Of a DNA stretch of 32,000 nt, positions 1 to 31,682 are shown one piece after another. The notes below the pieces were generated by a model. That model did not search any database, was not told where the DNA came from, and saw nothing but the letters and a program-made list of their open reading frames with translations. Every line of letters begins with the position of its first letter. Positions within the stretch are counted from its first letter, which is position 1. A program made the position numbers and the translations under genes. Source of the stretch: an uncultured archaeon (GTDB lineage Archaea; Asgardarchaeota; Thorarchaeia; Thorarchaeales; Thorarchaeaceae). The stretch lies in NCBI GenBank assembly GCA_964354495.1, contig CAYHAA010000005.1, forward strand, positions 30,001 through 62,000, given 5' to 3'.

Positions 1-880
1 CTGCAAGAATAATTCCAATCAGGCCGAGAACTGTCCACATTGCCCGCTGACCTCGTGCGATTGGTATTTCGCCCATAAGCACCCTGCCAGAGTTGCCATC
101 GATAGCAGCTTTGTAGAGATCGCCCTGGAACTTGTAGCGAACCATGGTGAACGGAGCCTGGAGGTATGTGGTTCCTCTCACACTAGTAGTAGTGCGACAA
201 TCAAACAGCTCTGCCAGGCCACTTCCTGCCTGAGCACGATGATTATCAGCGACCCGTCCATGAATCGCCTTCTCGAATTCTTCCTGACCTATCTCAGCAT
301 TGAGAATCATGGGATCAAGATCCTTGATCTTCTCAAAATTATAGGGAACTGTATTCTCAATCTTAATAGTTCCCAAGAATTCCTCAAGCCCATAGAAACG
401 AGCGCCCTTTCTTGCAAGCATTGGCTCATTAGTATCTGTGTGAAGTTCAGACTGAACAGGTACGTAGCCTGTTTCGTAGTCAGTATAAGTCTCAGTCCTA
501 GTATGGCCGTTAGAATCTCTAACAGTCCTAGTCTTTTGAACGGGAACCTGAACGGTCTTGTATCCCTTGTAGTAAGAATCAGCTTTGACCTTCGCAGTCC
601 ATACTGGTACGTAGATCAATCGGTTCTCGACGACTTGAACATTCTTGACCAAGGACTTATTCATACCCTTATTCTTGTCAAGAAAGCCTTGGAAGCCCCG
701 TATTCGCTCATCAGCGCCTATGGCAGGCTCCATCAAGTGGTCGCCAATAGCCTTTCCCTCTATTGTGCTCGTATTCCCACAATAGTTACAAGTAATAACA
801 ACATCATCAGGTCCCGTTTTTACATTGCCGTTACAGACAGGACACTTGAACATGTCCGCTGTTTGTGCTTCAGAACCCAT
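1..880 (-). CDS. Zn-ribbon (CxxC...CxxC) membrane protein, YdjG-like; partial, runs off the window start
   Basis: Not in the ORF track; translated by hand. The minus-strand frame is open from ATG 880 to base 1: MGSEAQTADMFKCPVCNGNVKTGPDDVVITCNYCG...LIYVPVWTAKVKA...YLQAPFTMVRYKFQGDLYKAAIDGNSGRVLMGEIP...MWTVLGLIGIILA. It has an N-terminal Zn ribbon, a YxPxW motif and the start of a TM helix. GGAGAG RBS lies upstream of 880. Confidence 0.85.
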   Translation of the reverse strand, partial: MGSEAQTADMFKCPVCNGNVKTGPDDVVITCNYCGNTSTIEGKAIGDHLMEPAIGADERIRGFQGFLDKNKGMNKSLVKNVQVVENRLIYVPVWTAKVKADSYYKGYKTVQVPVQKTRTVRDSNGHTRTETYTDYETGYVPVQSELHTDTNEPMLARKGARFYGLEEFLGTIKIENTVPYNFEKIKDLDPMILNAEIGQEEFEKAIHGRVADNHRAQAGSGLAELFDCRTTTSVRGTTYLQAPFTMVRYKFQGDLYKAAIDGNSGRVLMGEIPIARGQRAMWTVLGLIGIILA

Positions 881-1036
881 AGTCAAACTCTCCGAGTCTG
901 TGTATAGAAGAGCAATGTAGGTGAATTCTATTTAGCGTTATGGTGGTTGGCCCTCGAGAGTGATTTGCAGTGTTTTGATAGTTCGCAAACATTCAGAGGA
1001 AGGGCATCGACAACTTGTTTGCCCGTCTAGCCAATT

Positions 1037-2185
1037 TCATCTGCGGATTTCATCGCGAAGTCTGGCAACTGAGAATTCATCCACTCTGTCTTTGACCTCC
1101 TCTCGGGCAGCCTGATGTTTTTCAAGGAAGTCTACCATTAGGGGAGCCAGAAACTGCTTGCAGGGGCCACAGAGCAATTCACCAGATCTGCATGTGCGTT
1201 CGATTTCAGCGAGCTTAGCGTCGTCAGGTACGAAAATGAACTTGTACCATTTGAATACACTGCAGATGTCTGGATTAGCTCCGAGTTTGCGCTGCTCTTC
1301 GACCGTGGCGCGCCCTCCTGTAAAAGCAGCCATAACCTTCTTCTTCGCCATTCTTGACGTGTCAGTGGTGTAGATGACAGACATCTCATCAGAGGCAGAC
1401 ATCTTGCCTCCCTCTTTTAGACCTGGAACAAACATGCATTGGATGGTCGCAGGCTTGTAGTATCCGAGCTTTTCCGCGATATCTCTAGTCACCCTCCAGA
1501 ATGGATCTTGGTCAATCGCACACGGAATGAGGCAGGGCACGTTCTTGCCATAGATCCATGAGTGCAGAAAGGCCGGAACAGCTTGTATCGCAGGATGCCA
1601 GATGGAACCGATGTTCGTACTATTATCAAAACCGAAAGTCGCTTTTACTGTCGAGAAGGTCACTTTTCGAGCAACCTCAACAGCAATCTCATACAACATA
1701 TCAATGTGTTCGATGTCCTGAATGATGTACGTGTCCTCAGGTTCGAATCCGAGCGCCAATAGATCCAAGGTGTTCTCGTATGTATACCGTTTAACATCGC
1801 CAAGGCTGAGATTACTGTTGAAGAAGTACTTCTCATCATTTGTCATCTGGAAGTATAGTCGTGTCTTCACTCTGTCCTGCAGCCATTTGGTGAATATCCA
1901 AGGAACAAGATGACCGATATGAGTGTGGCCGCTGGGTCCTCTTCCAGTATAGATTATGAACGGATTCCTCTTGACATGTTCATCCAAAATCCAGTCTAGG
2001 TCTCTATGTGAGAAGAACAAGTCGCGCTCGAGCATAAAGTGCCGCCCGCCAGCCACTTTGAAAAGCTTCTCCTTCAGTTTCTTGTCTATACGCTGGGTAC
2101 CGAACATCTGAATGAGGCGGTCGTAGTCGAGCTTTCCGCGAACTTCATAGGGCGTGACTACCATTTCATCGTTCTCATCACTCAA
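1037..2185 (-). CDS. trpS: Tryptophanyl-tRNA synthetase (archaeal/eukaryal type)
   Basis: TPYEV N-terminus, YTGRGPS..HIGH, AIDQDPFWR and KMSAS motifs; TTG start with AAGGAG upstream. Confidence 0.97.
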   Translation of the reverse strand: MSDENDEMVVTPYEVRGKLDYDRLIQMFGTQRIDKKLKEKLFKVAGGRHFMLERDLFFSHRDLDWILDEHVKRNPFIIYTGRGPSGHTHIGHLVPWIFTKWLQDRVKTRLYFQMTNDEKYFFNSNLSLGDVKRYTYENTLDLLALGFEPEDTYIIQDIEHIDMLYEIAVEVARKVTFSTVKATFGFDNSTNIGSIWHPAIQAVPAFLHSWIYGKNVPCLIPCAIDQDPFWRVTRDIAEKLGYYKPATIQCMFVPGLKEGGKMSASDEMSVIYTTDTSRMAKKKVMAAFTGGRATVEEQRKLGANPDICSVFKWYKFIFVPDDAKLAEIERTCRSGELLCGPCKQFLAPLMVDFLEKHQAAREEVKDRVDEFSVARLRDEIRR

Positions 2186-2371: not shown

Positions 2372-3028
2372 TCAGAGTTCGGCTTTCTTGTAGGCATCCG
2401 GCATTCTAATTCCAGTCTTCCCCATGAAGACATCCCGTAATAGCTCAACGTGTTCATCGAGATCCTTGAGGAGCTTGTCACGAGCACTGGGTTCGATATT
2501 CGGCTCAACAACCCAGATTGTGAGATAGTTGCTCACTATGCCGATATCGATAGCGCCTTCCTCGAAGTCTCTGAATATAGTCAGTTTAACAAGAAACTCC
2601 TGCTCGTACATGTTGAGGATATCACGGATACTTATCATTATGAGATCGAGAAAGCCAACAAGATCATCGAGTTCTGGTGAGTCCTCAATGTCGCCGCGCA
2701 TGGACTCCGTGAGCGTCTGAATCGTAGATGAGGAGTGCCTCAAGTTCTCAAACATGTGCATAAGTTTAGTGAACTCTCTTATCGAGGTTTCAAAAGAGGG
2801 AACCAGATTATCATACAGAGTTACTAACAGAATGCCTTTGCAGTTCTCTCTAAGGTTTTGAAAGCCCTCAAGCTTGCCCAGCGGCCCATCCAAGTGCTCA
2901 ATCTGCATGATTGTGTTCGTGACCGCCTGAATCGCCTTCACAGATTTCCTCTGGATGTTTGACCATTTCTCGATGAATGTATCAAGTCCATCACGGAGAT
3001 CATCAAGTGAGTCCAGGTAATTCGGCAC
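2372..3028 (-). CDS. Helical protein with CINP/C1orf109-like (CK2S-like) signature
   Basis: 218 aa, amphipathic helices. FIEKW near the N-terminus and LNMYEQEFLVKLTIF...SNYLTIWVVEPNIE near the C-terminus resemble CINP as I recall it. GTG start with GGAG upstream. Confidence 0.7.
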   Translation of the reverse strand: MPNYLDSLDDLRDGLDTFIEKWSNIQRKSVKAIQAVTNTIMQIEHLDGPLGKLEGFQNLRENCKGILLVTLYDNLVPSFETSIREFTKLMHMFENLRHSSSTIQTLTESMRGDIEDSPELDDLVGFLDLIMISIRDILNMYEQEFLVKLTIFRDFEEGAIDIGIVSNYLTIWVVEPNIEPSARDKLLKDLDEHVELLRDVFMGKTGIRMPDAYKKAEL

Positions 3029-3129
3029 TTAGCTATCTACTCCGAGTGAATTTTCACTCTATCGCATATAAGATATTCTGCGGGGGCACAAATGATGAGA
3101 GGATACTCGCAAACATCCAACTGCCTTGA

Positions 3130-7227: not shown

Positions 7228-7788
7228 ATGGGCAAAAAAATAGATCCCATCGCCGAGCGAGTTAGAAAGAAAGCAGGCAAAGACATCAAGGGCGGGCTTA
7301 TCGGAAAGATAACCCACTACATCCCTGGATGGCACGGATATCAGGAGAAGAACGAGAGGCGCGCCGCTGACAAAGTCCTCCGTGAATTCCTCGCAGACCA
7401 GCTCCGTCTTGTCAAACAGAAGCTAGAGAAGCTGCAGATGATGGTAGTCGACTACAATCTCAGCAAGACCTGGGAGACATTCGACAGGATGCTCAATCTC
7501 ACTGATAAGATGGAGAGTTCAATCCGTTACGCTGACTATGGCTATGCGGCATGGGGCTCTAAGGAGAAGATCAATGAAGGAGAACTCGACAAGCTGTACG
7601 AGTTTGACGCGACGCTTCTTGACGACGTCGGAGATATCAACAATGTAGCTGAGGAATTTCAGGACCATATGAATCAAGGTAAATTCGATGGTGCTTGGGA
7701 TTACACCTATCGCATGTGGACCATCATGCAACGCTTCGAAGAGAAATGGAATCAGCGAGAAGGCTACATGAAGGGTTACCAAGATTAG
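7228..7788 (+). CDS. Conserved helical-bundle protein of the family usually found next to SPFH/zinc-ribbon genes
   Basis: IPGWHGYQEKNERRAADKVLRE...RYADYGYAAW...KINEGELDKLYEFD match a family I recall from Chloroflexi and archaea (IPGFxGYxERExRRxADKLLR...GYxGxFDAVKIxExELxxLYxFD). Confidence 0.8.
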   Translation: MGKKIDPIAERVRKKAGKDIKGGLIGKITHYIPGWHGYQEKNERRAADKVLREFLADQLRLVKQKLEKLQMMVVDYNLSKTWETFDRMLNLTDKMESSIRYADYGYAAWGSKEKINEGELDKLYEFDATLLDDVGDINNVAEEFQDHMNQGKFDGAWDYTYRMWTIMQRFEEKWNQREGYMKGYQD

Positions 7789-8149: not shown

Positions 8150-8325
8150 CTACTTGAACAACTCCTTGCATAGAGAGCAGATGATTGTTCTATAAGACTG
8201 AGCAATACGACTAGACCTGCATACTTGGATCCCAGCATTGGTAGAAAGCGGAACTTGCTGAATTCTCCTATACCGAAAGAGCCTATTACATTCAAAACGA
8301 GTACTATCTGTTGAGATGACAGCGT

Positions 8326-8646
8326 ATGCAGGTCAGTCTATTTGAAGTCACAATTGGTGCGGAATTCATGTTACTTGTCGGTTATCTTCTCTATGGCGTA
8401 CTGAGGAAATTCTCATCAGCAGATGACAGACCATCAATCTCGTTCTACATAACGATACTAATCGGGTTCATCACATCACTCCTTGTACTCAATGCCATGC
8501 TATCACTCTCAAGGTTTCTGCTGCAAGAACTCCCTCTCGTGAAGGGACTGCTGACTTTAGATATCATCCTCTTCGTGGTTGCCATAGGAGACACGCTAAG
8601 ATTAAACCAGTCCCGAAATCAACTTCATGCAAGTCATAATCCTTGA
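8326..8646 (+). CDS. Small membrane protein (about 3 TM), unknown function
   Basis: Three hydrophobic segments in 106 aa. Confidence 0.6.
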   Translation: MQVSLFEVTIGAEFMLLVGYLLYGVLRKFSSADDRPSISFYITILIGFITSLLVLNAMLSLSRFLLQELPLVKGLLTLDIILFVVAIGDTLRLNQSRNQLHASHNP

Positions 8647-8716
8647 AATGTAGGAGCATCACTCTTGGTTGAGTATCAGATATCGATTCGGAGAAGCTCT
8701 CATGTACCTGCTATAA

Positions 8717-9520
8717 TTAGCTGATACGGCCACTAGATTTCCTATGCAGAGAGAGTAAAGGACCAAGTATTCTAGCGTTGATGAGCAATCGCTCCCAAGC
8801 TGCCTCAATGTCGTCAGCAGAAAAGACACGGATATAGACATCAAACCCGTGAGGCGCGTACATAGTTTCCCAACCAGCCATATCACCGAGAGTGAAGAAG
8901 TGAGGAGCGGCACCAAGATAGCTTCTCTCATCAAACATCACATAGGGTCTATAGGGCTCTCGGTCAGGATGGTCTATCAGCATTCCTGAGCAACTCTCTA
9001 CTGTCGCAAAGCCGAGACCATTTAGTTCCGTTATGTGAGGCCGAATCGAGGTGTCGACATAATCAATGAACTCACTCGGTGGCACAAATTCGTGGATTCT
9101 TGATTCCCATAGTTCGCGATGCCATTCAGTCGCGTACTGGCCCCATATCACTGTCCCATACTGGCCGAGAGCAATACTCTCCTTGTAGAACTTCATGCAG
9201 TCCATGATAGAAGATAGAACAGAGGTGAGCTTACTCCATGCTTGAATGCTTGAGTCAATGGAGTCTGCTTGCTCATTGGCCTCATGGTTGATTATTGAGT
9301 GGCTGAGAAGTACATCACGGTCTGAAGTGAACTGGGCATTCCAGAGGGCAGCATCGGCGATTGTGAAAAGATGAGCTTCAACGCCAGGATATGATGTGCG
9401 GTCGATGACGACGTATGGCTTCTCCGGAGAAGCGACTCCAAAACCCACTTGAAGTTCCTTGACTGCCAAATCATACTTCCGAAAAATCCTGGCCAACTTG
9501 CGTGCACTTCGCATGGACAA
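8717..9520 (-). CDS. Protein with two tandem TYW3-like domains, unknown function
   Basis: YVDTSIRPHITELNGLGFATVESCSG motif plus a visible internal duplication (KPYVVIDRTSYPGVEAHLFTIADAALW vs RPYVMFDERSYLGAAPHFFTLGDMAGW). Confidence 0.7.
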   Translation of the reverse strand: MSMRSARKLARIFRKYDLAVKELQVGFGVASPEKPYVVIDRTSYPGVEAHLFTIADAALWNAQFTSDRDVLLSHSIINHEANEQADSIDSSIQAWSKLTSVLSSIMDCMKFYKESIALGQYGTVIWGQYATEWHRELWESRIHEFVPPSEFIDYVDTSIRPHITELNGLGFATVESCSGMLIDHPDREPYRPYVMFDERSYLGAAPHFFTLGDMAGWETMYAPHGFDVYIRVFSADDIEAAWERLLINARILGPLLSLHRKSSGRIS

Positions 9521-9781: not shown

Positions 9782-10618
9782 CTATTGTTCGAATTTCTTG
9801 GCTATCTTGCCCATACCATAGATGAAAAGCATGATCAGAAGTATGGCTCCAAGATTCGTTGTACCAAGGACAGACATGTTTCTGAAGAAGTCAATAGATG
9901 CAGATGGTCCTGCATAGGCCCAATAGTTGAGGAGGATTCCATATGGTGCGTAGTAGACAATGTTGTAGGTGATCCCGAGAAGGAACACCAAAACCATTAG
10001 CATATAGAAAATCTTCGCCAGGTCCCCAAAGAAGCCACCTATTTTGTCACCCAGGTACATCTTGAGGATGTTAAAGAGCCCGTACACTAAGAGGCATACT
10101 CCGAACACTACCATTATGCCGCCGCCCATGTAGATGAACGGGGGCATGACATGGTTAGCACTTGTTGTTCCAATCATTGCATTCAAATCGAAGTTCGCAT
10201 AGAGGGCAACACCCAGCACAATGAACAGACCTTTCAGGAAGTGAAAGATGTTCTTGATGAGGTCCCAGTTCTTCATTCTGTTCTCGAGGAACGGAGCAAT
10301 GAAGAACAACACACCCACAATTAGGAACATTGCTGCTGCAGCTGCCTGTGCTGCTTGTACCACCATCCACAGTATTGAATCCAGGATTAGAGCTAGGCCT
10401 AGGCAGAACCAGGCCATATTCTCTTTTCCGATTGCATAGTACATCGGGAATAATAGCCCGATTACTAGAGTAAAGTAGTAAACCCATGTCAGTACTGGAT
10501 CAGCAAGCACTGCCGCTGACAGATATGTCCAAGGCAGGTAGATTAGAAAGAATAGTGCCAATGCAATAGCTGACATGTATTGAATCAACGTTTTCCAGTC
10601 GAATTCTTCTTTAACCAA
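9782..10618 (-). CDS. Polytopic membrane protein (about 8 TM), unknown function
   Basis: Long hydrophobic ORF; likely TTG start at 10618 behind a GGAG RBS (the ORF track starts at 10633). Confidence 0.8.
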   Translation of the reverse strand: MVKEEFDWKTLIQYMSAIALALFFLIYLPWTYLSAAVLADPVLTWVYYFTLVIGLLFPMYYAIGKENMAWFCLGLALILDSILWMVVQAAQAAAAAMFLIVGVLFFIAPFLENRMKNWDLIKNIFHFLKGLFIVLGVALYANFDLNAMIGTTSANHVMPPFIYMGGGIMVVFGVCLLVYGLFNILKMYLGDKIGGFFGDLAKIFYMLMVLVFLLGITYNIVYYAPYGILLNYWAYAGPSASIDFFRNMSVLGTTNLGAILLIMLFIYGMGKIAKKFEQ

Positions 10619-10751
10619 ACTTTCACTCTCCACTCTTAACCAGAAGGTTAGAAATGTTGAAGTGAAACAGATTTAAACTAGCATAAATGCGTGTTGCTTT
10701 TCGTGGGACGAAAGCGCGAATTGGTATTCCTTTTATGACAAGGTGAGAACG

Positions 10752-11507
10752 ATGAAGATTACTATGCTGGGTACAGGCACTTCATACCCTGATCGAGAGA
10801 GAGTGCAATCAGGCATACTCGTTGAGTCGGGCGAGGATAAGATACTACTTGATATTGGCTCAGGAGTTCTACATAGACTTACCCAGCTTGAGATTGATCT
10901 TAGAAAAATCAGCTCTGTCTTCATTAGTCACTTTCACATTGACCATTGCTCAGATTTCTTGACCTTGTGCCAGAGCCTATGGCTGACAAAATCAGAGCAA
11001 CCTCTCAAGGTGTACGGTCCCCCCTTCATTCTCGATTGGTTCAGAGGAATTCGAGATGTTGCATCTCCCTACCTCATAGGCAAATTTGAGATTCAAGCAT
11101 CGAAGCTCAGTGAGAATGATGTTATCAAAGTAGGAAGAACCGCAATTTACAATCATCCTACGATTCATGGCGCTATGGACACGAGAGCCTTCAAAGTGCA
11201 AGCGGATGGTGAAACACTTGTTTACTCGTCAGATACCGCACCGTCTCAAGAACTGAATAGATTCGCGAAGAGTACAGACATTCTCATTCATGAGTGTAAC
11301 TGGTTGGACGGACAGCATCCCCAGGGAGTACATACTGCTCCCAGTGAATTGGCACTGATAGTTGAGGAAGTATCGCCCTCAAGCGTAGTTCTAACGCATC
11401 TCTCCCCAGAGGTGGCAAGGAATGGCCATAAGGTGACGGAAATTGTAGGGTCTCGGAGTGGAGCAGATGTACGCTTGGCTGAGGATTTGATGTCATTTGA
11501 GACTTAG
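10752..11507 (+). CDS. MBL-fold metallo-hydrolase, RNase Z/BN-like
   Basis: LGTGTSYP, LLDIGSG, SHFHIDHCSD (HxHxDH), YSSDT, LIHEC, LTHL motifs. Confidence 0.9.
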   Translation: MKITMLGTGTSYPDRERVQSGILVESGEDKILLDIGSGVLHRLTQLEIDLRKISSVFISHFHIDHCSDFLTLCQSLWLTKSEQPLKVYGPPFILDWFRGIRDVASPYLIGKFEIQASKLSENDVIKVGRTAIYNHPTIHGAMDTRAFKVQADGETLVYSSDTAPSQELNRFAKSTDILIHECNWLDGQHPQGVHTAPSELALIVEEVSPSSVVLTHLSPEVARNGHKVTEIVGSRSGADVRLAEDLMSFET

Positions 11508-11923
11508 GCAGTAGGAAGTGGACCCCACATACGTTTGATGTTCGACATCCCGAATACACCACCCATAATGAAGATTGGAGTCCATGATGTCAGGTCTTGA
11601 AAATCCGGAAGAAAAACAGGAACACCGGTCTGAGAGATAGCCAAACCATTGACGACGAGAATCGTGAAGAAGGTCATGGAATACACGAGATTTGCTACTG
11701 CTGCCTGTCGCGCGAACTTGTACTCGTAGGTCTTGACAACACGCGCAGTGTCACGTATCAATCGAATGACAAAGAATAGCATCATAGCGATGACTGCAGG
11801 AAATCCGAAGTAGTAATACAGTACGTAAGCTGCGAGCACTGCGATTGTATAGAAAAGATAGTTTACCAAAGGGTTGAAAGCTCTCACAGGTGGTCGAGTG
11901 CTCTCTGCCTCTTTCTCGTTCAT
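11504..11923 (-). CDS. Small membrane protein (about 4 TM)
   Basis: Hydrophobic segments from MNEKEAES onward; the upstream ORF extension looks non-coding. The stop codon overlaps the MBL gene stop. Confidence 0.7.
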   Translation of the reverse strand: MNEKEAESTRPPVRAFNPLVNYLFYTIAVLAAYVLYYYFGFPAVIAMMLFFVIRLIRDTARVVKTYEYKFARQAAVANLVYSMTFFTILVVNGLAISQTGVPVFLPDFQDLTSWTPIFIMGGVFGMSNIKRMWGPLPTA

Positions 11924-12174
11924 TGAGTGGCCAGTGGCGTCATCATCAGTCAAAGTGGTGCACAATAGCTCTCGATGACGGTGCTCTAATAACTTGACCC
12001 TTAGGAGCAAAAGCAACGTTTTTGCAGCTGCGGGCCTTATTTGATGATAATGATTCTGCCCTGCGGTGCAAATAGCGGTTCTGACCGAACAGAAGCCGTT
12101 TGAACATACCATGTCAATGTTTAAAACCTATGACACCTGTATCGAATTAGAACTCGAAAAAAACGGGTGTTCTT

Positions 12175-13062
12175 ATGGCAGATGCAATTGAATGGACTAA
12201 TGCCAGTCCTGATCACGTCGTCTGGAAATATCCAGACAACAGAATCGATTGGGGCTCGCAACTCATCGTATTGGAAAACCAAGCCGCTATCTTCTACAGA
12301 GATGGCAAAGCTTTGGATACTTTCCTTGCGGGCCGCCACAAACTGACCACTAGTAGTATGCCTGGCCTTGTTGGTTGGCTGCAGAAGAAGGTCAAGGGTG
12401 ACGTCTTTGAGGCCACCTGTATCTTCATTTCACGCTCCCAATTCCAAGGCAAATACGGTGGAAGGGGACAGACCAGCGATCTTGCCCCGCTCATGTTTCA
12501 CGGTAATTTCTGGTTCCGAGTCAAAGAGCCAAAGGTTTTCGTGACCGAGGTTGTTTCGAATCAGAATGCATTCACGACACAGAAAGTCAATGATTTCCTG
12601 CGCTCATTCATGAACGAACGAATCATCGATGAGTTCGCTCACTACGACCTGCAGGCAGTCTTTACACAACTTGATGAAACCTCACTTAAGGTCAAGACCC
12701 AAGTCCGCATGAACTTCGAGAGAATCGGTCTAGAGCTTGTAGACCTGAAGTTTGAAGGGATTGATACTACAGAGAAGTATCGTGAACGACTCTTCTTCAT
12801 GAAGACCGGTGGAGTGAGCGGAGCGCAGATGCTGGGTTCAGAAACTGTCAAGTCTTCAGCTGAATCTCTCGGTAAGAGCCCAGGTGCTGGCTTTGGCGCA
12901 GGCATGGGCTTCATGGGGTCAGCTGCAGGTATGATGGGCGCAGGGGGACAACAGCAAGGCGGGGGCGGCGGAGCACCAGCAGGAGCCAAGTTCTGCCCGA
13001 ACTGCGGCACAGCTCTCCAAGGCGCGAAGTTCTGTCCCAACTGTGGAACCAAAGCAGGATAA
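12175..13062 (+). CDS. SPFH/band-7 domain protein (YdjI / virion-core-like) with a C-terminal double zinc ribbon
   Basis: VVWKYPDNRIDWGSQLIVLENQAAIFYRDGK...GRHKL, then a Gly/Met-rich linker GAGFGAGMGFMG and KFCPNCG x2. Confidence 0.9.
   Translation: MADAIEWTNASPDHVVWKYPDNRIDWGSQLIVLENQAAIFYRDGKALDTFLAGRHKLTTSSMPGLVGWLQKKVKGDVFEATCIFISRSQFQGKYGGRGQTSDLAPLMFHGNFWFRVKEPKVFVTEVVSNQNAFTTQKVNDFLRSFMNERIIDEFAHYDLQAVFTQLDETSLKVKTQVRMNFERIGLELVDLKFEGIDTTEKYRERLFFMKTGGVSGAQMLGSETVKSSAESLGKSPGAGFGAGMGFMGSAAGMMGAGGQQQGGGGGAPAGAKFCPNCGTALQGAKFCPNCGTKAG
12984..13051 (+). repeat. Imperfect tandem duplication encoding the double zinc ribbon
   Basis: GCCAAGTTCTGCCCGAACTGCGGCAC / GCGAAGTTCTGTCCCAACTGTGGAAC (AKFCPNCGT x2). 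Confidence 0.75.
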
Positions 13063-13193: not shown

Positions 13194-14027
13194 TCATATG
13201 AATACGGCTACAAGATTGATTAGCACTCCGACGCTGCCAATCATCAAGAAGTGACCTAAGGCAGAGCCTCTTTCACACTTTCTGTGTGTTCCAGAGTCTG
13301 CTCCGAAACTTCCTAGATAGGATTTCCAAATCAGTGCGATGAGTGCAAGGACAGTATTAAGGTCAATTGAAATCCACAGAGTTTGAGCTTCGAACGACTG
13401 CAACTCTAAGAGAGCCTGCTCAAGATCGGTTGTGTCAATAACAATAGATGGAAAGAACATCCAAGTAACGAATAGCCCAATGAAACTGACCACAATATTG
13501 GGTATGTACGCATAGCCTGTCACTGACGCGGCTGCTCGAAAATCCCAAGAACTGCTACCACAAAGATATCGGATCAAGTATGATTTGACCAGCCATCTGA
13601 TAATCAGAACAACTGGTACAAAGACCATTGCAAGTGTAACAGCTGACATAACCCCAAAAGTCACTTGAGAGCCATACGTACCAACAAACTGCATTTTTGA
13701 AAGCCCAATCATTGCACCAATTACTGAGAGAATAGTCCAGACAGCAAACAGAACTATAACCCCACTATAGTCCGGAGCTAGACCAATATCGTTCATCGAT
13801 TCATCTGGCGATGTCAGCAATTTCGTGATTCTCTCAAACATCGACAGTTTTCTTTCATAAGGTGGGTATTGTTGGGTAGGCGTGCTCCCGCCTACCAATT
13901 CAATAGAGGTTGGACTTGGTGATAGTCTAGATACTTGCGTGCCACAAAATCCGCAATATGCTTTTCCAGCAGGAACTAGTTTTCCGCACTTAGGGCACGT
14001 AAGCGCCTTCTCTTCATCGAAACTCAC
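13194..14027 (-). CDS. Zn-ribbon + Yip1-domain membrane protein
   Basis: N-terminal CPKCG...YCGFCG, then LLTSPDESMNDI (Yip1 P-x-x-x-F-like entry) and about 5 TM helices with the ..SVTGYAYIPNIV pattern. Confidence 0.8.
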   Translation of the reverse strand: MSFDEEKALTCPKCGKLVPAGKAYCGFCGTQVSRLSPSPTSIELVGGSTPTQQYPPYERKLSMFERITKLLTSPDESMNDIGLAPDYSGVIVLFAVWTILSVIGAMIGLSKMQFVGTYGSQVTFGVMSAVTLAMVFVPVVLIIRWLVKSYLIRYLCGSSSWDFRAAASVTGYAYIPNIVVSFIGLFVTWMFFPSIVIDTTDLEQALLELQSFEAQTLWISIDLNTVLALIALIWKSYLGSFGADSGTHRKCERGSALGHFLMIGSVGVLINLVAVFI

Positions 14028-16799: not shown

Positions 16800-16993
16800 C
16801 TCGAGGACCGTAGCTATAAAAAAGGGGTGGTTCATGCGTATTTTGGTTTGAATGACGCAGGCATGCCGAGTCCGTCATACAGCACGACCCGAGTAACCTA
16901 GCGAAAGGAATCTGGAATAGGAAAGATAGACGAATGATGAGAGAATCAAGCTCTTCCACTCAGTCGCAGACGAAACCCATAGGCTCTAGGAAG

Positions 16994-18805
16994 ATGAAGA
17001 AGAGCACTGGATCATTCTACACGCCTCAAGACTTGGCTGTCCTAATTGCTAATGAGACTCTGAATAGATGGCTTGCTAGAAGGGGAGGCATACTCAACTC
17101 TGATGTCAGTAATCTCTCAGAGTTGGACCAAGCTTTGCAAATGCGTCTATTGGAACTCGTGAAGGACATACGAATCCTAGACCCAGCTGTTGGTGGCGGG
17201 GCATTCCTTCTCGCTGCCGCTGATTGGTTGAATACCGTGAGATTTGCTCTAGGAGATGTACTGACTGCGCCTGAGAAACGATACGACATTGTGAAAAACT
17301 CACTCTATGGTGTTGATCTAGTCAACCTGGCAGTAGACACGTGCAAGAGAAATCTTGTGACATGGAGTAATCAGGAAGTCGCCAAGGAGCCAATCCTCAA
17401 GGCAAGGGATTTGACAAGAATAAGGCAAGGGAACAGCCTTGTCGGTGTCGTCGAAGGGGCGGATTCTGCAAATCATGCCTCAAAAGAGGCCGTTGATGAC
17501 GCAGCCGCATTTGATTGGCCCACAGAGTTCAGTGAAGTCATGCATTCTGAAGAACCTGGATTTGATGTTATTCTTGGCAACCCTCCGTACGGAAATCTGC
17601 TGAATACTTGCGAACGACAGCACATCCAAACCACTTACCCTTTCAACGTAGGAGGCGGACGCGATGGTTCCTGGAATTGTGCAGCTCATTTTATTGTCCG
17701 TTCGAGAGCGCTCATGAAGAATGGCGGTCATCTCGGTCTCTTAGTCCCGAATAGCATTCTTAGAGTGAATCAGTTCAGTAAGACTAGAAGATTCCTTCTT
17801 GATGAGATGTGCCTATGGAAGATTGTTGATGAAGGCAGTCCCTTTGAAGGTGTAACACTTGAAATGGTCAGCCTCTTCTGCGAGGCGACCAATGACTGCC
17901 TGCATACTCAGATTGAGATTGAATCGCGAAGGCCTGGTCATGAACAATCCAATAGAGTAGAAGTCGAAGCACTAAGGGGGAGCAGGATATTCTCTATCTA
18001 CCATGATCCTCTGTTCTCAATGATTCTGAGAAAGGGAAAGCGAAACATGCTCACCGCTAACCGTGGCAGAGATATTCCAAAGGAACATGTCAGTGACGTA
18101 AGAACCAATGAATTCAAGATTCCTTACATAACAAGCGGTAGAAGTGTCGGAAGATACAGGATTGACACGCGGCGGCAAATCTATACCGACAATTGGTTCA
18201 GGCGAGACAAGAGGTTGACAGAGTCGTTTGAGAACAGGTTTCTGGTTGCCACCAAGAATCTCAGGTATCCGAGATGCGTAATGAAACCGACAGGCGTCAT
18301 TCATGGTGGAGGAATCGTAAGAATCGCTCCAAGCAATGGAGGTATTGATGGAGAGGTGGTTGGACTCATTCTGAATTCGCGACTCGTTCAGTACATATGC
18401 ATGCGATATCTGACGAACTACTCTCAGCTCACAACTTGCCTCAACACAGGCATCATGGATGATCTTCCTCTTGTCATCCCTGCTCGTCCTAATGTCTACG
18501 CAACGCTATTCGACGCACTCACAAATCTGTATGCACATGCAGATGATGCATGGTTTGAGAATTGTAGAAACAACTTCGAACGTCTTGTTGATGCAATAGT
18601 CTATGAGCTCTACTTCTGCAAAGACCATGGGTTGGAGGAATCGCTGGCAACAACATTACCAGAACGGTTCGACTCTATTGCGCTCTGCAATCTCTTGAAG
18701 GAGAGAAGAATAGCCAATAGAGTTGGAGATATAATGAAGATGCCAGCTGTCAAACAGATTGAGGAGAGACTTGATGCCACTAAGGAGGCGCCTCTTAGAT
18801 ACTGA
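16994..18805 (+). CDS. N6-adenine DNA methyltransferase (Eco57I/TaqI-like gamma group) with a C-terminal target-recognition domain
   Basis: GSFYTP, ILDPAVGGGAFL (motif I), YGVDL, IRQGNSL, FDVILGNPPYG (motif IV); TaqI_C-like C-terminus (GLILNSRLVQY). No nuclease domain is seen. The start may be at 16934. Confidence 0.92.
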   Translation: MKKSTGSFYTPQDLAVLIANETLNRWLARRGGILNSDVSNLSELDQALQMRLLELVKDIRILDPAVGGGAFLLAAADWLNTVRFALGDVLTAPEKRYDIVKNSLYGVDLVNLAVDTCKRNLVTWSNQEVAKEPILKARDLTRIRQGNSLVGVVEGADSANHASKEAVDDAAAFDWPTEFSEVMHSEEPGFDVILGNPPYGNLLNTCERQHIQTTYPFNVGGGRDGSWNCAAHFIVRSRALMKNGGHLGLLVPNSILRVNQFSKTRRFLLDEMCLWKIVDEGSPFEGVTLEMVSLFCEATNDCLHTQIEIESRRPGHEQSNRVEVEALRGSRIFSIYHDPLFSMILRKGKRNMLTANRGRDIPKEHVSDVRTNEFKIPYITSGRSVGRYRIDTRRQIYTDNWFRRDKRLTESFENRFLVATKNLRYPRCVMKPTGVIHGGGIVRIAPSNGGIDGEVVGLILNSRLVQYICMRYLTNYSQLTTCLNTGIMDDLPLVIPARPNVYATLFDALTNLYAHADDAWFENCRNNFERLVDAIVYELYFCKDHGLEESLATTLPERFDSIALCNLLKERRIANRVGDIMKMPAVKQIEERLDATKEAPLRY

Positions 18806-18844: not shown

Positions 18845-19453
18845 ATGCACGAAGACAAGGAATCCCCGGATTTGGCCGAAGAGATTGTTGATGCGATTGA
18901 CGAGGAGGCAGATGTTGACCAAGCAGGCGATGGCCTCACAAAACGTGAACGTCATATTGAATCGAAGAGAATGTCTGAGAGAGAGAGAAAGGCAGAAGAA
19001 CTGCGAAAGCAGCTTCGAAAGCGAAGTCTCGGTCTTCTCAACTATCGATGGCCTGCAATGATGCTGATTTTCAGCGGAATCATGGCAATCATGAGCAATT
19101 TCCTACAAGTAATGACGCGGCTTGAAGGAGTACCTCCGGAAGTAGGATTCAACACCTTCATTGACGCATTCCTAATTACGTGGGGAGTCTTCTTTCTCTT
19201 TCCAATGATAGCAGGGTCTTTCATGATTGTGCTCAGCTATTTTGCCTACAGAACTCCAAAAGCTACTTGGCTTGCCCTTATTCCCTCATTGATGCTATTC
19301 ATGGCCGGAGGCACAGTGTATTTTCTAGTGACTTTCGCTGTTTCAGCCCAACCAGAATTGACCGGTCTCCTCTATGCGACTGGTGTGCCACTCTCCATGT
19401 TCATTGCAGGTGGCATTGCACTACTGGCAATTTACATGCGAGAAAGAGAATAG
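18845..19453 (+). CDS. Membrane protein with an acidic, charged N-terminal tail and about 4 TM helices
   Basis: N-terminal 60 aa rich in D/E/K/R, followed by hydrophobic helices. Confidence 0.75.
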   Translation: MHEDKESPDLAEEIVDAIDEEADVDQAGDGLTKRERHIESKRMSERERKAEELRKQLRKRSLGLLNYRWPAMMLIFSGIMAIMSNFLQVMTRLEGVPPEVGFNTFIDAFLITWGVFFLFPMIAGSFMIVLSYFAYRTPKATWLALIPSLMLFMAGGTVYFLVTFAVSAQPELTGLLYATGVPLSMFIAGGIALLAIYMRERE

Positions 19454-20023
19454 CTAATCCCTCAGAAAGTCATCCAGTCTGCCTTCTTCCTCGAGCATTT
19501 CCATCCAGTCGATGCGGATGGGAGCAGTCTCAGACTTGAGAAGCTCCTCTATCCTTGATGCCACTTCGGGAGGACTGAGACTAGTTGTATCAATCTCATA
19601 TACCATGTCTTCACCAAAAGCATCAAGAGCATCCAGCTGGCAAACTCCAAGGACCTCAGCTTCTACGTTTTCATCTACTTTCGCCTTTGAGTACCCACGT
19701 TCCAGAAGGCGTTCTCTGAGGATCTGTGGATGCGTTCTCAAGACGACTGCAATCTCAACTGAATCATAGGGAACAAGATCAACATAGTGGCCTTCGATGA
19801 TAATTCTCTTACTCCTATCATCGACAACATCAAGGATGGCCTCCACTAGGCAATCCTCATTGATGATACCGGTGTCGCGTGCTTTGTCTTGTGCAGTGAT
19901 GCATCCTTCCCGTTCAGCAAGTTCACCAAGTGAGACAATTTGACAAGTCAGTCTACTTCCCAGAATCTTGGCAATCTTCGTCTTGCCTGTTCCAGGAGTT
20001 CCTCCAATAACTATAGCGGGCAT
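19454..20023 (-). CDS. AK6: AK6/Fap7/hCINAP-family nucleoside monophosphate kinase
   Basis: GGTPGTGKT P-loop, IIIEGHY (hhhDxH-like), LRERLLERGYSKAKVDENVEAE. Confidence 0.92.
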   Translation of the reverse strand: MPAIVIGGTPGTGKTKIAKILGSRLTCQIVSLGELAEREGCITAQDKARDTGIINEDCLVEAILDVVDDRSKRIIIEGHYVDLVPYDSVEIAVVLRTHPQILRERLLERGYSKAKVDENVEAEVLGVCQLDALDAFGEDMVYEIDTTSLSPPEVASRIEELLKSETAPIRIDWMEMLEEEGRLDDFLRD

Positions 20024-20151: not shown

Positions 20152-20676
20152 GTGAGAAACACGACAGAGGCCTACAGCATCCGGCAGTTCGTCACCGATG
20201 ACATGAGGCAGGTAGTCCACATCAACAAAGAGTGTCTTCCTGAGAACTATCCTGACCAGTTCTTCTTGGGTTTGCACTACCACGCTCCAAAGGCATTCCT
20301 TATCGCTGAGCTCGACCGAAAAGTCGTAGGCTATATCATGTGCAGGATTGAGAGAGGCATCTCATCATTTGGACGGTTGCCAGTCAAGAGGGGACACATC
20401 GTTTCTGTCGCAGTGATTCCCACTGTCAGGCATCAGGGAATTGGAACTGCAATCATCAAAGCTGGCATGAATGCCATGGAGGAATATGGCGCTGCAGAGT
20501 TCTTCCTTGAAGTACGAAAGAGCAACGAATCAGCGGTTTCCGTATATGAGTCACTTGGATATGAGATTCGTCGTGTTCTCCGCGGCTACTATCGCGATGG
20601 TGAAGATGCGTATCTCATGGTCGCCAAGGCAGAGTCAGCTCCTCAGGATGAGACGCATGATGAAGAATTCAATTGA
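20152..20676 (+). CDS. ard1: Archaeal N-terminal acetyltransferase (Ard1/Naa10-like GNAT)
   Basis: CLPENYP, VVGYIMCRIE, GHIVSVAV..RHQGIG, LEVRKSN, YYRDGEDAYLM. Confidence 0.92.
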   Translation: MRNTTEAYSIRQFVTDDMRQVVHINKECLPENYPDQFFLGLHYHAPKAFLIAELDRKVVGYIMCRIERGISSFGRLPVKRGHIVSVAVIPTVRHQGIGTAIIKAGMNAMEEYGAAEFFLEVRKSNESAVSVYESLGYEIRRVLRGYYRDGEDAYLMVAKAESAPQDETHDEEFN

Positions 20677-21607
20677 AGTTCCACTCATCCCGGATTGCGC
20701 GCCATGCATCATGAGCAGTCTCAAGATTCTGGTGCCCCTCCTGGCACAAGATTTCGATACTCAGGCGAAGTACTTTGCTTTTGCCTTCAAGGCTCTTTCT
20801 GAAGGCTACGCGCGGAAAACACCACCAGTTCAGCTGTCCATCGGCATCTATCGGGACCTCTATACTCGAGCGGGCATAAGAGACCCCTATGTCGATATCA
20901 AAAGGGCCAGTACCAAAGCTGCACTCAGGGCACTGCCTGCAATTGAAGAGAGTATAAGGTGCTTGAAGGGATATGCTCGCCTCCGTGCATGCCTGGCTTC
21001 AGCCATAACTGGGAATGTGATCGATTTCAATACTGCAGGTCACAAACCAGACCTTGAAAGATTGACTGAAACATTCGAGGGCATAATGAAGACGGGTTTT
21101 GCTGTTGACGACTCGGAACACCTCTGGAAGACGCTGGAGTCAAAGCACGGAAAATTGCTGTATTTAGCAGACAACGCGGGAGAAGTGATTCTTGACATTC
21201 CTTTGCTCCGTTTGGTTAGGAGTCTAGGTTGGAAAACCACTCTCATTGTCAAAGGAAGACCAATGATCAATGATGCAACAGTTGAAGACGTTCGTGAAAC
21301 TGAGATTGAGGTTTTGGCAGATATAGAGGACAATGGTGCTTGGGCGCATGGAGTTCCAATTCAGTTTGTGGGCAAGAAGTTCCTGCGCCGCGTGGCCGAA
21401 AGTGACCTTGTCATTTCGAAAGGTCAAGCAAACATTGAAACCTTTCCCGAAATCCAGATTCAGACCAATGTCGAAACATACTATGTTACTCGTGCCAAAT
21501 GTGCACATATCTCACAGGCAGTCGGAGCCAAGAAAGATGACAATGTGGTCCTGCGGCAACCCAAACCAGAAGCCATATTCTCAAGAATGGACAACGATAT
21601 GTGTTGA
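20660..21607 (+). CDS. DUF89/ARMT1-like damage-control phosphatase
   Basis: DCAPC N-terminus, GNVIDF, DNAGEVILD, KGRPMINDAT, ISKGQANIETF; overlaps the ard1 3' end. Confidence 0.92.
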   Translation: MKNSIEVPLIPDCAPCIMSSLKILVPLLAQDFDTQAKYFAFAFKALSEGYARKTPPVQLSIGIYRDLYTRAGIRDPYVDIKRASTKAALRALPAIEESIRCLKGYARLRACLASAITGNVIDFNTAGHKPDLERLTETFEGIMKTGFAVDDSEHLWKTLESKHGKLLYLADNAGEVILDIPLLRLVRSLGWKTTLIVKGRPMINDATVEDVRETEIEVLADIEDNGAWAHGVPIQFVGKKFLRRVAESDLVISKGQANIETFPEIQIQTNVETYYVTRAKCAHISQAVGAKKDDNVVLRQPKPEAIFSRMDNDMC

Positions 21608-23837: not shown

Positions 23838-23873
23838 AAAGAGTCAAACGTGGAATAGTATCGGGTGTTGCTC

Positions 23874-24539
23874 ATGTCAGACGGCCCAGAAAAGGACGAA
23901 AACGAGACTGAGGAGGACCTTACTCTAGAAGAGATAGCCTCTCTTCTGAGCAATATAAGTGGTGTCGGACCAAAGACAGCTCAGAAGCTGGCGCAATCTG
24001 GTTATGACTCCATCGAAAAGGTAGCTCAGGCTCAGAAGGAAAAGCTTGCAGAGGCAGTAGCAGGCCTCAGCGAGTCAAAGGCTGAAGCAGTGATTACTGA
24101 AGCCATCGCGCTTGTCGAAAAAATCGAGTCTGGAGCCGTCGAACTGAGCGGCAAGGCTAAGTCAAAAAGGAAGAAGGCTCCAGAGCCTGAACCCGAACGA
24201 CATGAGCTAGCACCGATAGAGGCAATAACTCGGGCTGAAGAGCGAAAGAACCTTGTCACTGGTTATGACGAGGACAAAGCTGCCCTTGGAATCACCATTG
24301 GTCCGAAGTGGCTAACGAAGTACGAAAAGGCTCGGATTATCGGGGCGCGTGCGCTCCAAATATCCATGGGAGCTCCAGTCATGATCGAAGTGCCTGCCGC
24401 TCCTAGGGGACGCTTTGGATTCGCTGAGGAAGAGCTTCGGGCAGGGGTCTTACCAATGACTGTACGAAGAACTCTACCTACCGGCGAGTACAGTGACATA
24501 CCTCTCTCAGTCTTGCTGAAGAACACGAAGTTGGATTAA
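23874..24539 (+). CDS. rpoK: RNA polymerase subunit Rpo6/RpoK with an N-terminal helix-hairpin-helix domain
   Basis: C-terminal [22 protein letters not shown]...[10 protein letters not shown] (Rpo6/RPB6); N-terminal [24 protein letters not shown]...[11 protein letters not shown] (HhH). Confidence 0.93.
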
Positions 24540-25948: not shown

Positions 25949-26112
25949 AACACCAGTGACTGCTCAACGCAAGACTTAAAGTCAAACAGGATGGAGAGAA
26001 CTACGGTGACAAATACGATAGTTGGTGGATTTGTTCATCGGTAATGTCGATGATTACAATGATGTTTCCGCTACCTACATCTGTTACCGGAATGAGTTTT
26101 GGAGGACCACTG

Positions 26113-27435
26113 ATGAGTGAAATGAGAACAGTACGAGGTATGAGAGACCTCTACGGACCCGAAATGAGGGTTAGAGACTACCTCATTGAAACAGCAGTCG
26201 ATGTCTTCAAGAAATACAGCTATGAGCCGCTAGACTCTCCGGTAATGGAACTGTGGGAAACACTCTCAGCAAAGGGTGGAGAAGATGTTGAAGCTGAGAC
26301 TTTCAAATTCTTAGATAAGGGTGAACGCGAAGTCGGACTGAGATTCGACTTGACAGTGCCCCTTGCTAGAATAGTGGCTACGAACCCTCATCTCCCAAAG
26401 CCCTTCAAGCGATACGCTGTGGGAAAGGCCTGGAGATACGATAGACCTCAGGCTGGAAGATATCGAGAGTTCGAACAAGCAGATGTCGACATAGTTGGCG
26501 CTTCGAGTCCTGCGGCAGATGCAGAGGTAATTCTCGTCGCCTTGGAATTCCTTAGAAGGGTGTTCGGAAAAGACTATGTCATCAAAATCAATAATCGAAA
26601 GGTGCTGAAGGGACTCACAGAGAAGGCAGGTATTCCCGACAGTCTCGCCTTCGAGTGCTTCAGAGCAATTGACAAGCTTGACAAGATTGGTCGAGATGGT
26701 GTTCTAGAAGAATTAAGGACAAGACGCATTGGAAAGAGAGAGAGTGACTTTCTGCTTGATGCCATAGCAATAAAGGGCTCTGGCGTAGCAGCTCTAGATG
26801 AGTTCAAGGATTTGCTTTCGGGCTCCAAAATAGGCATTGAAGGCGTCGATGAGCTGGTACTCATGGCCGAAATCTTTGAAGACGCCGGAGTCAAAGATGT
26901 CACCGCCTTCGACATGTCATTGGCGAGAGGTCTCGACTACTACACAGGCCCAGTGTTTGAAGGTCGATACCTCGGAGAGCCAGACGTTGGTTCTATTCTT
27001 GGAGGCGGCCGATACGACCATCTGATTGAGAAGTTTGGAGGACCCTCCACACCTGCAACTGGCATCTCTCTTGGTATTGGCAGAATGATAGAGGTGGTCA
27101 TGGCACTGGGAATCGGTAAGGACCTTGTTCCCGGGCTGGATGTATACATCGCTCCTCTGAAACGCTCAATGGTACGATATGCAATGGCTCTTCAGGAAGA
27201 CCTAGTCAAGCAAGGAATTGCCTGCGAGGTTGATATAATGGATAGACCTCTCAAGAAGTCACTTGAAGAGGCCGATATCAAGAATGCAAAACGGACCGTG
27301 ATCATTGGCGAGCGGGATGTGCAGAATGGAGAGGTGAGCATTCGGGATATGGCCAACAAGTCAACAGAACAGGTGAAGATAACAGCCTCTGCGAAATTCA
27401 TCAAGAAGGCACTAAGAAAGCGAAGTGATGGGTAG
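26113..27435 (+). CDS. hisS: Histidyl-tRNA synthetase
   Basis: VRGMRDL, LRFDLTVPLAR, WRYDRPQAGRYREFEQ, LARGLDYYTG, GGGRYD; GGAGG RBS at 26101. Confidence 0.97.
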   Translation: MSEMRTVRGMRDLYGPEMRVRDYLIETAVDVFKKYSYEPLDSPVMELWETLSAKGGEDVEAETFKFLDKGEREVGLRFDLTVPLARIVATNPHLPKPFKRYAVGKAWRYDRPQAGRYREFEQADVDIVGASSPAADAEVILVALEFLRRVFGKDYVIKINNRKVLKGLTEKAGIPDSLAFECFRAIDKLDKIGRDGVLEELRTRRIGKRESDFLLDAIAIKGSGVAALDEFKDLLSGSKIGIEGVDELVLMAEIFEDAGVKDVTAFDMSLARGLDYYTGPVFEGRYLGEPDVGSILGGGRYDHLIEKFGGPSTPATGISLGIGRMIEVVMALGIGKDLVPGLDVYIAPLKRSMVRYAMALQEDLVKQGIACEVDIMDRPLKKSLEEADIKNAKRTVIIGERDVQNGEVSIRDMANKSTEQVKITASAKFIKKALRKRSDG

Positions 27436-27484: not shown

Positions 27485-28324
27485 ATGACAAGAATGCCTG
27501 TTGTTGCGGGAAAATTCTACGAAGGAAAAGAGGATCTGCTTATCAAACGGATAGAGAGCTGCTTTAAAGGAAATCTCGGTCCGGGAAGACTGCCAGAGGG
27601 AGAACCAGGTAAGACTAGAAACATCAAGGCTGCTGTTGCTCCACATGCAGGCTACATGTACTCAGGAATGCCAGCAGCTCACACCTATCTCAATCTTTTC
27701 CAGGATGGGAAACCGGACCATATTGTGATCTTTGGACCCAATCACACCGGGATGGGAGCAAGACTCGCAGTCTGTAACGAAGACTGGGTAACTCCTCTTG
27801 GCAAGGCGAAGTATGATAGTGGTCTCGGAGCAGCCGTTGTAGAGCAGGACGAGTATGCGTCCATTGACTGCATTGCCCACAGCAGTGAGCATTCCATTGA
27901 GGTACAGATTCCATTCCTGCAGTATGTGTTTGGTCCTGAAGTCAGATTCATTCCAATCTGCATCACCGACCAATCTTACAGTGTCTGCGAATCAATTGGA
28001 AAGACCATAGCTAGTTTGGCTGAACAAGACGATATTCTTGTCATTGCTAGTTCAGACTTCACGCATTTCGAGTCTGCAGAGAGTGCGAAGAAGAAGGACA
28101 ATCAAGCAATGGAGTACTTGGAATACCTTGATCCAAAAGGATTCCTGAACTTCGTCCAGAGTCATAGACTCAGCATCTGCGGAGCTGGCCCAATTACAGC
28201 CGCCATGGTCTATGCGAATGAATGTGGTGCCACGCGATTCAATCTACTGAAGTACACGAACTCTGGTGACGTCACGGGTGACAGCACGAGTGTTGTTGCC
28301 TATGTAGCAGCCACAGTTGTCTGA
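27485..28324 (+). CDS. amrB: MEMO1-family protein (AmmeMemoRadiSam protein B)
   Basis: VAGKFY, PHAGYMYSG, GPNH, EHSIEVQIPFLQ, SSDFTH, CGAGP, TNSGDV. Confidence 0.95.
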   Translation: MTRMPVVAGKFYEGKEDLLIKRIESCFKGNLGPGRLPEGEPGKTRNIKAAVAPHAGYMYSGMPAAHTYLNLFQDGKPDHIVIFGPNHTGMGARLAVCNEDWVTPLGKAKYDSGLGAAVVEQDEYASIDCIAHSSEHSIEVQIPFLQYVFGPEVRFIPICITDQSYSVCESIGKTIASLAEQDDILVIASSDFTHFESAESAKKKDNQAMEYLEYLDPKGFLNFVQSHRLSICGAGPITAAMVYANECGATRFNLLKYTNSGDVTGDSTSVVAYVAATVV

Positions 28325-30854: not shown

Positions 30855-31682
30855 TCACCCTTCAGGAACGAGCATAGGGAGGTCCACTCGCACGCCAGGT
30901 CGCGGGAGAGAGCAGGCATAGACACGGTCCAATCGAACGTATCCTGTCGAAGCATCAATCTCATGGAAGGTGCCTTTCAGTTGGAACGCAGCTGGTTCAA
31001 GAGTGACAAGTGAGATTGCAAGCCTTTGTCCGTCATGAAGTGAGAAACCTCTTCGTTTCTCTTCTCCACGTTTTACAACGATTGTGTTGGTTGACACTGG
31101 AAGCATTCCAAACTCTGGAAAGGCCACGGGATAACCATCATCACCAACAAAAGCGAGTACCTTGACTGCAGCCATCTGAGAGAAGGCCTTGAACACATTT
31201 CGAGGCATATTTCCCTCTTCTGATTTCTCGGCAGGCACCTTGCTCTTCGCCATCTTCGCCTTCATGTAGCATAAGAGGACTGAGAGCTTGGAGATGCCGA
31301 ACTTCTCACTCGATGAAATTGCCTCAGCTACACCTGCAGCTCGGGCATTCGTGTATTGATTATATCGGAACAGTGGAGTCTGTGCAATGAACTCGTAAAT
31401 CTCGTCATTCCGATGAAATGACTCGAACTCTGTTCTTATGAGCCAACTGTCCAATCGCCTCGTAAACACGAGAATTGACATCTGACGATTTCCTTTGCTG
31501 AGATTCTCGCGACTCTTCACTGTCATGAAATCGCCATAGACAAGCGTGTTTCCTTCGTAGATGGTCCAAGTCATCACCAAAGCCACATTGGGTTCATTGT
31601 CTGAGTCCTTTGTCACCATGAACTTTGGTGTCAGGAAAACCTGTATTGCATCAATGAGTTCTTTGTCAAGTACATCAGTCAC
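30855..31682 (-). CDS. Tandem pyridoxamine-5'-phosphate-oxidase-like (split-barrel) protein
   Basis: Two copies: KFMVTKDSDNEPNVAL...KSRENL and KVLAFVGDDGYPVAFP. Likely GTG start overlapping the activase stop (the ORF track starts at 31718). Confidence 0.75.
   Translation of the reverse strand: MTDVLDKELIDAIQVFLTPKFMVTKDSDNEPNVALVMTWTIYEGNTLVYGDFMTVKSRENLSKGNRQMSILVFTRRLDSWLIRTEFESFHRNDEIYEFIAQTPLFRYNQYTNARAAGVAEAISSSEKFGISKLSVLLCYMKAKMAKSKVPAEKSEEGNMPRNVFKAFSQMAAVKVLAFVGDDGYPVAFPEFGMLPVSTNTIVVKRGEEKRRGFSLHDGQRLAISLVTLEPAAFQLKGTFHEIDASTGYVRLDRVYACSLPRPGVRVDLPMLVPEG

Follow-up and report, generated by a model that had tools for sequence, protein, structure and literature searches.

A Thorarchaeal homolog of the eukaryotic unfoldase subunit CINP and its possible role as a lid on Cdc48

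The Thorarchaeal genome analyzed here encodes a 218-amino-acid protein that is almost certainly a homolog of eukaryotic CINP, the CDK2-interacting protein, and a bundle of five helices. In animals and plants, the essential AAA+ unfoldase that CINP and C1orf109 cap functions in maturation of the large ribosomal subunit; in human cells it also acts on replisome proteins, and mutations in its ATPase subunits lead to neurodevelopmental disease. An archaeal homolog of CINP had been proposed in a preliminary description of this DNA, and profile searches, motif conservation and the predicted fold all bore the proposal out. Self-association of the protein into a lid on the N-terminal domains of Cdc48/VAT was the best available mechanism, at a probability of about 45%, and a partnership with the ATPase that is restricted to eukaryotes ranked close behind.

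The gene lies on the minus strand of the window, a 32,000-nucleotide stretch of contig CAYHAA010000005.1, with the following features.

2372..3028, minus strand: CINP-like coding sequence, 218 aa, GTG start, five long helices (open reading frame list and translation)
2963..2965, minus strand: codon for W22, a helix 1 residue that does not vary within the Asgard family (alignments A1 and A4)
2501..2611, minus strand: most conserved block, M140-P176 (MYE...K...Y.T.W..EP), helices 3-4 (conservation counts and alignments)
3040..3071, minus strand: putative promoter and ribosome-binding site, read from the sequence

The reading frame that had been described at this position was confirmed by translation, and all three segments quoted from its product were found there (N-terminal LDTFIEKWSNIQRKS..., LGKLEGFQNLRENCKGILL, and C-terminal ILNMYEQEFLVKLTIFRDF...VSNYLTIWVVEPNIEPSAR). 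The frame was supported by orthologs (64-99% identity) that agree with it in length and N-terminus. The sequence upstream of the GTG contains a TATA-like element (TTATAT, 3071-3066) at a distance of about 40 nt and a GGAG (3043-3040) at 11 nt; given these elements, the gene may have its own putative promoter. Two 151-nt contigs from one sediment metatranscriptome matched inside the gene (2692-2996, 94-98% identical), a hint of transcription for which DNA carry-over is a possible source. The AF2 model of the protein (pLDDT 88.6, pTM 0.82, from an input alignment of 22 sequences) contained five long helices and one short one, at residues 2-45, 51-55, 59-112, 119-157, 162-174 and 180-201, as expected from the earlier account of an all-helical protein.

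Homology to CINP was detected by sequence at several levels. With the single sequence as query, the only PDB matches at E<=10 were human CINP constructs (n=4, E 0.013-0.022). The archaea-only profile A4 matched CINP at E 3.7e-10, with the next match at 0.0065, and the resulting alignment was collinear and near full-length, pairing profile positions 7-186 with CINP residues 21-199. CINP was likewise recovered by the Hodarchaeota-type profile A5 (E 2.4e-10) and by the Thorarchaeota-only profile A2 (E 6.9e-4; next match 0.18). A mixed profile that included the sequence P0141 gave E 3.4e-14; since P0141 is eukaryote-like, the profile tests were redone without it. Identity between the archaeal protein and human CINP was about 16-18% across about 180 collinear residues. 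The human strings given in the preliminary description were correct, as HMMER displayed LILKWETLNDAGFTTANNIANL and LLEMYRKELLLKRTVAKELAHT-GDPDLTLSYLSMWLHQPYVESDSR in the PDB CINP chains, and these aligned where they had been paired with the archaeal segments. The motif likeness to CINP thus exceeds chance, both by the best single-sequence match (PDB E 0.013) and by the archaea-only profile. A language-model search returned eukaryotic clusters carrying the Pfam family PF15011 as the nearest ones (score 0.93).

The residues conserved within the Asgard family fell on positions that characterize CINP. W22, M140, E142 and P176 were invariant in the family and W172 and E175 were conserved at 95%, and the invariant residues were located at the W, MY.KE and W..QP positions of CINP, with W22 aligned by HMMER to the W of 'LILKWETL' in the human chains. 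Within the most conserved block, V147, N167 and T170 aligned with human CINP L162, S181 and S184, the mutation of which impaired binding to SPATA5/SPATA5L1 (PMC11055677). The CINP residues needed for ATPase binding therefore coincide with the best-conserved block of the archaeal protein.

The predicted fold pointed to the same family. When the AF2 model was compared with the PDB by Foldseek, one of the checks proposed earlier, CINP and C1orf109 chains of 55LCC came first (TM 0.55-0.70), and the best nine matches among Swiss-Prot models were four CINP, four AIRIM/C1orf109 and At5g43822, which is OPNR. Alignment of the model on human CINP chains (8cih, 9gwj_B, 8rhn_C and 9lgo_J) by VIA-align revealed the same five-helix bundle, at Z 15.0-15.8 and an rmsd of about 3 A (for 8cih_A, Z 15.8, rmsd 3.2 A, 183/188 residues). 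When a set of 48,161 representative chains was scanned exhaustively, CINP took the first rank (Z 14.6) and C1orf109 the third (Z 13.0); rank 2 was a designed bundle (Z 13.6), so that CINP and C1orf109 were the two best natural proteins. In a search of AFDB clusters, the top matches were unnamed, and no named prokaryotic family ranked above them. For a helical bundle structure alone is insufficient, and it is structure together with the profile statistics that is decisive for homology to CINP. Compared with human CINP, the archaeal protein is of nearly equal length and has the W, MY.KE and W..[EQ]P positions in common, with E or Q before the final proline. It lacks the basic N-terminal extension of CINP with its PRKP and RKIK motifs and starts at helix 1, model residue 2 being aligned with CINP residue 17. 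These motifs are dispensable for formation of the human complex (PMC11055677).

The relation to C1orf109, also raised in the preliminary description, held for the fold (Z 13.0) and not for the sequence. The model superposed on C1orf109 with Foldseek TM values of 0.63/0.68 (9gwj_A) and with 186 residues aligned at the above Z score (9gwj_C), and a common fold at TM about 0.6 was seen for C1orf109/AIRIM (AFG2-interacting ribosome maturation factor) and its plant counterpart OPNR. Thus, both human paralogs were about equally similar to the archaeal model by fold. By sequence, the best C1orf109 match in the PDB was 9gwj_A at E 0.25 with the mixed profile A1, and C1orf109 was not found within E<=1 with profile A4, profile A5 or the single sequence P0134, the best PF15011 scorer, whose search against the PDB returned nothing significant. 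Sequence comparison accordingly places the Asgard family as specifically CINP-like, clearly closer to CINP than to C1orf109. PF15011 (CA109-like, 'C1orf109-like') was nevertheless the top Pfam match of the Thorarchaeal protein (E 8e-4), at 19.8 bits, under the 27-bit gathering threshold for this protein alone. Among 10 distant Asgard relatives scanned, 5 exceeded the threshold (52.1, 46.7, 54.5, 35.3 and 36.8 bits), and several orthologs carried a precomputed PF15011 match. This shared Pfam family is a suggestive link between the archaeal family and C1orf109. The proposal that one archaeal gene is ancestral to both CINP and C1orf109 fits with the single copy and the common fold.

The claim that the protein was a new eukaryotic signature protein did not survive, as Asgard homologs of CINP had been published in March 2026. 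That report classed CINP as an Asgard 'iESP', which among prokaryotes it found only in Asgard archaea, in five major clades, and its CINP tree grouped eukaryotes with Hodarchaeales at 99% ultrafast bootstrap (PMC12962969). Its text is without Thorarchaeia, Cdc48/AAA proteins, an ATPase partner or a function, and names C1orf109 only in a reference title (PMC12962969). The central homology claim was therefore already known, as was its consequence that the CINP lid protein is older than eukaryotes. The Thorarchaeal protein belongs to the same family as these Asgard CINPL proteins, with the same length, invariant residues and CINP-like fold, and finds CINPL sequences labelled Hodarchaeota, 'Asgardarchaeia' and Promethearchaeota directly (E 1e-21 to 1e-4). 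It differs in that the Thorarchaeal copy, taken by itself, scores below the Pfam threshold.

The family was widespread and patchy among Asgard archaea. The protein had 144 close homologs (64-99% identity, 218-250 aa), nearly all of those with names being labelled Thorarchaeota. An exhaustive HMMER scan of 1.84 billion representatives yielded 21 matches, including full-length relatives at 21-35% identity; the full-length matches with a source name were all labelled Asgard ('Asgardarchaeia', Promethearchaeota or Hodarchaeota), and several clusters had no source name. Outside Asgard archaea, sequence and language-model searches found only eukaryotic relatives. Across 400 Asgard genomes, the gene was present in 128, including 79/85 of the home family, 21/22 of family f11, 17/19 of f14, 5/5 of f30 and 2/2 of f12, and was absent from f22 (0/135), f8 (0/31) and others. 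It was single-copy in the genome studied (3.3 Mb, 97.7% complete), in which no C1orf109-type paralog for a heterodimer was found. One candidate for a second paralog, a match on contig C29 (E 0.029), contained an internal TGA stop and was judged to be noise.

Two matches of unusual form were seen along the way. In two genomes of the home family (genus g2), the CINP-like match was in two pieces (G313:C1:1404635-1405339 and G314:C275:1175-1876). Each pair of pieces was inside one open frame of 269-270 aa, which indicates an insertion of about 30 residues between profile positions of about 120 and 114. Among the 1.84 billion representatives, the only match on a eukaryote-like contig was P0141 / P0154 (401-kb ENA contig). 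P0141 is an orphan of 233 aa with a basic, disordered N-tail and the string 'LWLHQPYL', on a gene-sparse contig; a search of a 5.8-billion-protein collection for close relatives returned only itself. A search with a small profile built from Hodarchaeota sequences and P0141 recovered four sequences, all already known.

The partnership between this family and Cdc48-type ATPases is well defined in eukaryotes. In the human complex, two CINP-C1orf109 heterodimers bind the N-domains of the SPATA5-SPATA5L1 hexamer and form the lining of a funnel over the pore (PMC12019325; PMC11055677). The N-domains of the Arabidopsis CDC48D-CIP111 hexamer carry a ring in which the CINP-like OAP1, the C1orf109-like OPNR and OAP2 are present at 1:1:1, and this ring hands over RPL24C (PMC12332008). 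Binding to Cdc48-family N-domains is the sole structurally defined role of the family in animals and plants (PMC12019325; PMC11055677; PMC12332008), and its conservation between the two indicates that the lid-ATPase partnership was present in the last eukaryotic common ancestor. The Thorarchaeal genome encodes two Cdc48/VAT paralogs of 733 and 729 aa that are 55% identical.

L008:587-2785, contig C20: Cdc48 paralog of the canonical type found across Asgard archaea, 50-57% identical to those of other clades
L009:581-2767, contig C5 of G000, about 75 kb from the CINP-like gene: divergent Cdc48 paralog, 34-42% identity

Both were closest to Thermoplasma VAT and then to p97, both had HbYX-like tails, and AFG2-specific likeness was found in neither. 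Close orthologs of the C5 paralog (53-69%) occurred only in the home family, and the two paralogs differed in their N-domains. In comparison with 55LCC and plant OPENER, the ancestors of the components are present, in the form of one CINP-like protein and two double-ring ATPases of the Cdc48 family. 55LCC and OPENER have two or three lid paralogs where the archaeal genome has one lid gene, and the archaeal ATPases are canonical VAT/Cdc48 proteins and not AFG2 orthologs. Unlike the setting of human CINP, the genome lacks a paralogous partner, an AFG2-type ATPase and the Rlp24 substrate, of which the archaeal counterpart is eL24 only.

In the mechanism that we tentatively prefer by analogy with these complexes, the single-copy CINP-like protein would self-associate, and the oligomer would bind the N-terminal domains of a double-ring AAA+ unfoldase of the Cdc48/VAT type. 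As a lid above the pore, it would select or position substrates, in the manner of CINP-C1orf109 on SPATA5-SPATA5L1 and of OAP1-OPNR-OAP2 on CDC48D-CIP111. A homo-oligomeric Cdc48 lid was favored since this is how the family is used in plants and animals alike. If this is correct, a specialised Cdc48 cofactor system existed before eukaryogenesis, and the paralogous heteromer of eukaryotes would be explained as the descendant of a homomer. The locus provides a convenient test case for this mechanism, with a single-copy, well-folding 218-aa protein beside two Cdc48 paralogs of the same genome.

Nearly as plausible is that the protein is a true CINP homolog that acts without a Cdc48-type ATPase, such as by providing a helical scaffold in processes related to translation or to genome maintenance, and that the ATPase-lid role arose only in the stem of the eukaryotes, once the AFG2 paralogs and Rlp24 had appeared. 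Consistent with this alternative, no link to Cdc48 emerged from synteny, phyletic pattern or predicted complexes. In none of the clades examined did a Cdc48 gene adjoin the CINP-like gene, and synteny identified no other conserved functional neighbor across clades. Genomes with the gene had 2-4 full-length Cdc48 copies and those without it 2-3, and no Cdc48 orthogroup was confined to the gene-carrying families (FastTree, 105 paralogs from 43 genomes). The gene is patchy while Cdc48 is universal, and the large families with Cdc48 and without the gene (f22 and f8) indicate that there is no general requirement of Cdc48 for it. Neither an AFG2-like paralog nor an Rlp24-like gene was present in the genome; no extra eL24/Rlp24-type gene was found, and there was one eL24 per genome with or without the CINP-like gene. 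An aminoacyl-tRNA synthetase was often near the gene in different clades, an association that is loose. Complex prediction of the CINP-like protein (A4) with both Cdc48 N-domains (A6 and A7) gave a score of 0.01, which counts neither way. Against action without Cdc48, no structurally defined role of the family is known from animals or plants apart from that on Cdc48-family N-domains, the best-conserved archaeal block is the CINP region needed for ATPase binding, and no result pointed to an alternative partner. Neither synteny nor phyletic pattern nor complex prediction lent support to the homo-oligomeric Cdc48/VAT adaptor suggested in the preliminary description, which remains plausible by homology.

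A further-reaching form of the lid mechanism, which we consider unlikely, is that the Asgard protein represents the pre-duplication ancestor of CINP/OAP1, C1orf109/OPNR and OAP2 and was already a homo-oligomeric Cdc48 lid. If so, the unfoldase architecture of the 55LCC/OPENER type would be older than eukaryotes.

Eukaryotic contamination, or recent transfer from a eukaryote to Thorarchaeota, might be suspected from the purely eukaryotic relatives beyond Asgard archaea, and is highly improbable. The gene lies within a 185-kb contig among archaeal genes, including those for TrpRS, an HTH-CBS regulator, an archaeal-type SAM synthetase, an M3 peptidase, a thermosome subunit and HisRS. A check of flanking synteny, as had been advised, found the order SAM synthetase / HTH-CBS / CINP-like ... 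TrpRS kept in Thorarchaeota, with proteins 64-69% identical; this local order is simply inherited. The gene is single-copy in the 79/85 home-family genomes that carry it, several other Asgard families carry it at 20-35% identity, and the published tree places eukaryotes beside Hodarchaeales and not within Thorarchaeota (PMC12962969). Collectively, the single copy, archaeal surroundings, kept order and spread across the phylum exclude contamination and recent transfer.

Convergence, in which a generic bundle of long helices matches the motifs of CINP by chance, is close to refuted: helical bundles easily reach high structural scores (designed bundles, Z 12-13.6 against the AF2 model) and the single-sequence matches are weak (CINP E 0.013; Pfam 19.8 bits against the 27-bit cut-off), but the collinear, full-length match was obtained with a profile devoid of eukaryotic sequences, the Asgard invariant residues sit on those of CINP, relatives exceed the curated PF15011 threshold, and CINP and C1orf109 were the best natural structures among all chains scanned.

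Several observations concern other genes. In three Asgard clades, an aminoacyl-tRNA synthetase gene was only a few kb away from the CINP-like gene, possibly by chance.

1037-2185, minus strand: TrpRS, near the CINP-like gene
26044-27435, plus strand: HisRS, also in the window
L005:7448-9133: MetRS-type synthetase in another clade
L007:258-1706 and 8244-8681: CysRS-type synthetase and ThrRS editing domain in another clade

Six open reading frames of the window, of 186-287 aa, had no Pfam match at the thresholds used (7228-7788, 8717-9520, 9782-10633, 11504-12112, 18845-19453 and 30855-31718), and the 186-aa frame at 7228-7788 was conserved beside the SAM synthetase region in L010. Zinc ribbons were seen in three proteins (12175-13062, plus strand; 13194-14027, minus strand; 2-886, minus strand), which include an SPFH/Band-7 protein with a C-terminal ribbon and a membrane protein that has a Yip1 domain and a ribbon at its N-terminus; the third, of 295 aa, has a CxxC...CxxC N-terminus and no Pfam match. 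The window also encodes a 623-aa N6 DNA methylase of Eco57I/MmeI type (16934-18805, plus strand) and an adenylate-kinase/Fap7-type P-loop kinase of 189 aa with an AAA_18 match (19454-20023, minus strand). Just 3' of the thermosome gene, a 224-aa open reading frame (23865-24539, plus strand) combines a helix-hairpin-helix domain (HHH_5) with an RNA polymerase Rpb6/RpoK domain, and possibly encodes a variant of RpoK formed by fusion. Two families best known from eukaryotes are also represented in the window (both plus strand), by an ARMT1-like damage-control phosphatase at 20471-21607 and by a Memo-like protein at 27485-28324.
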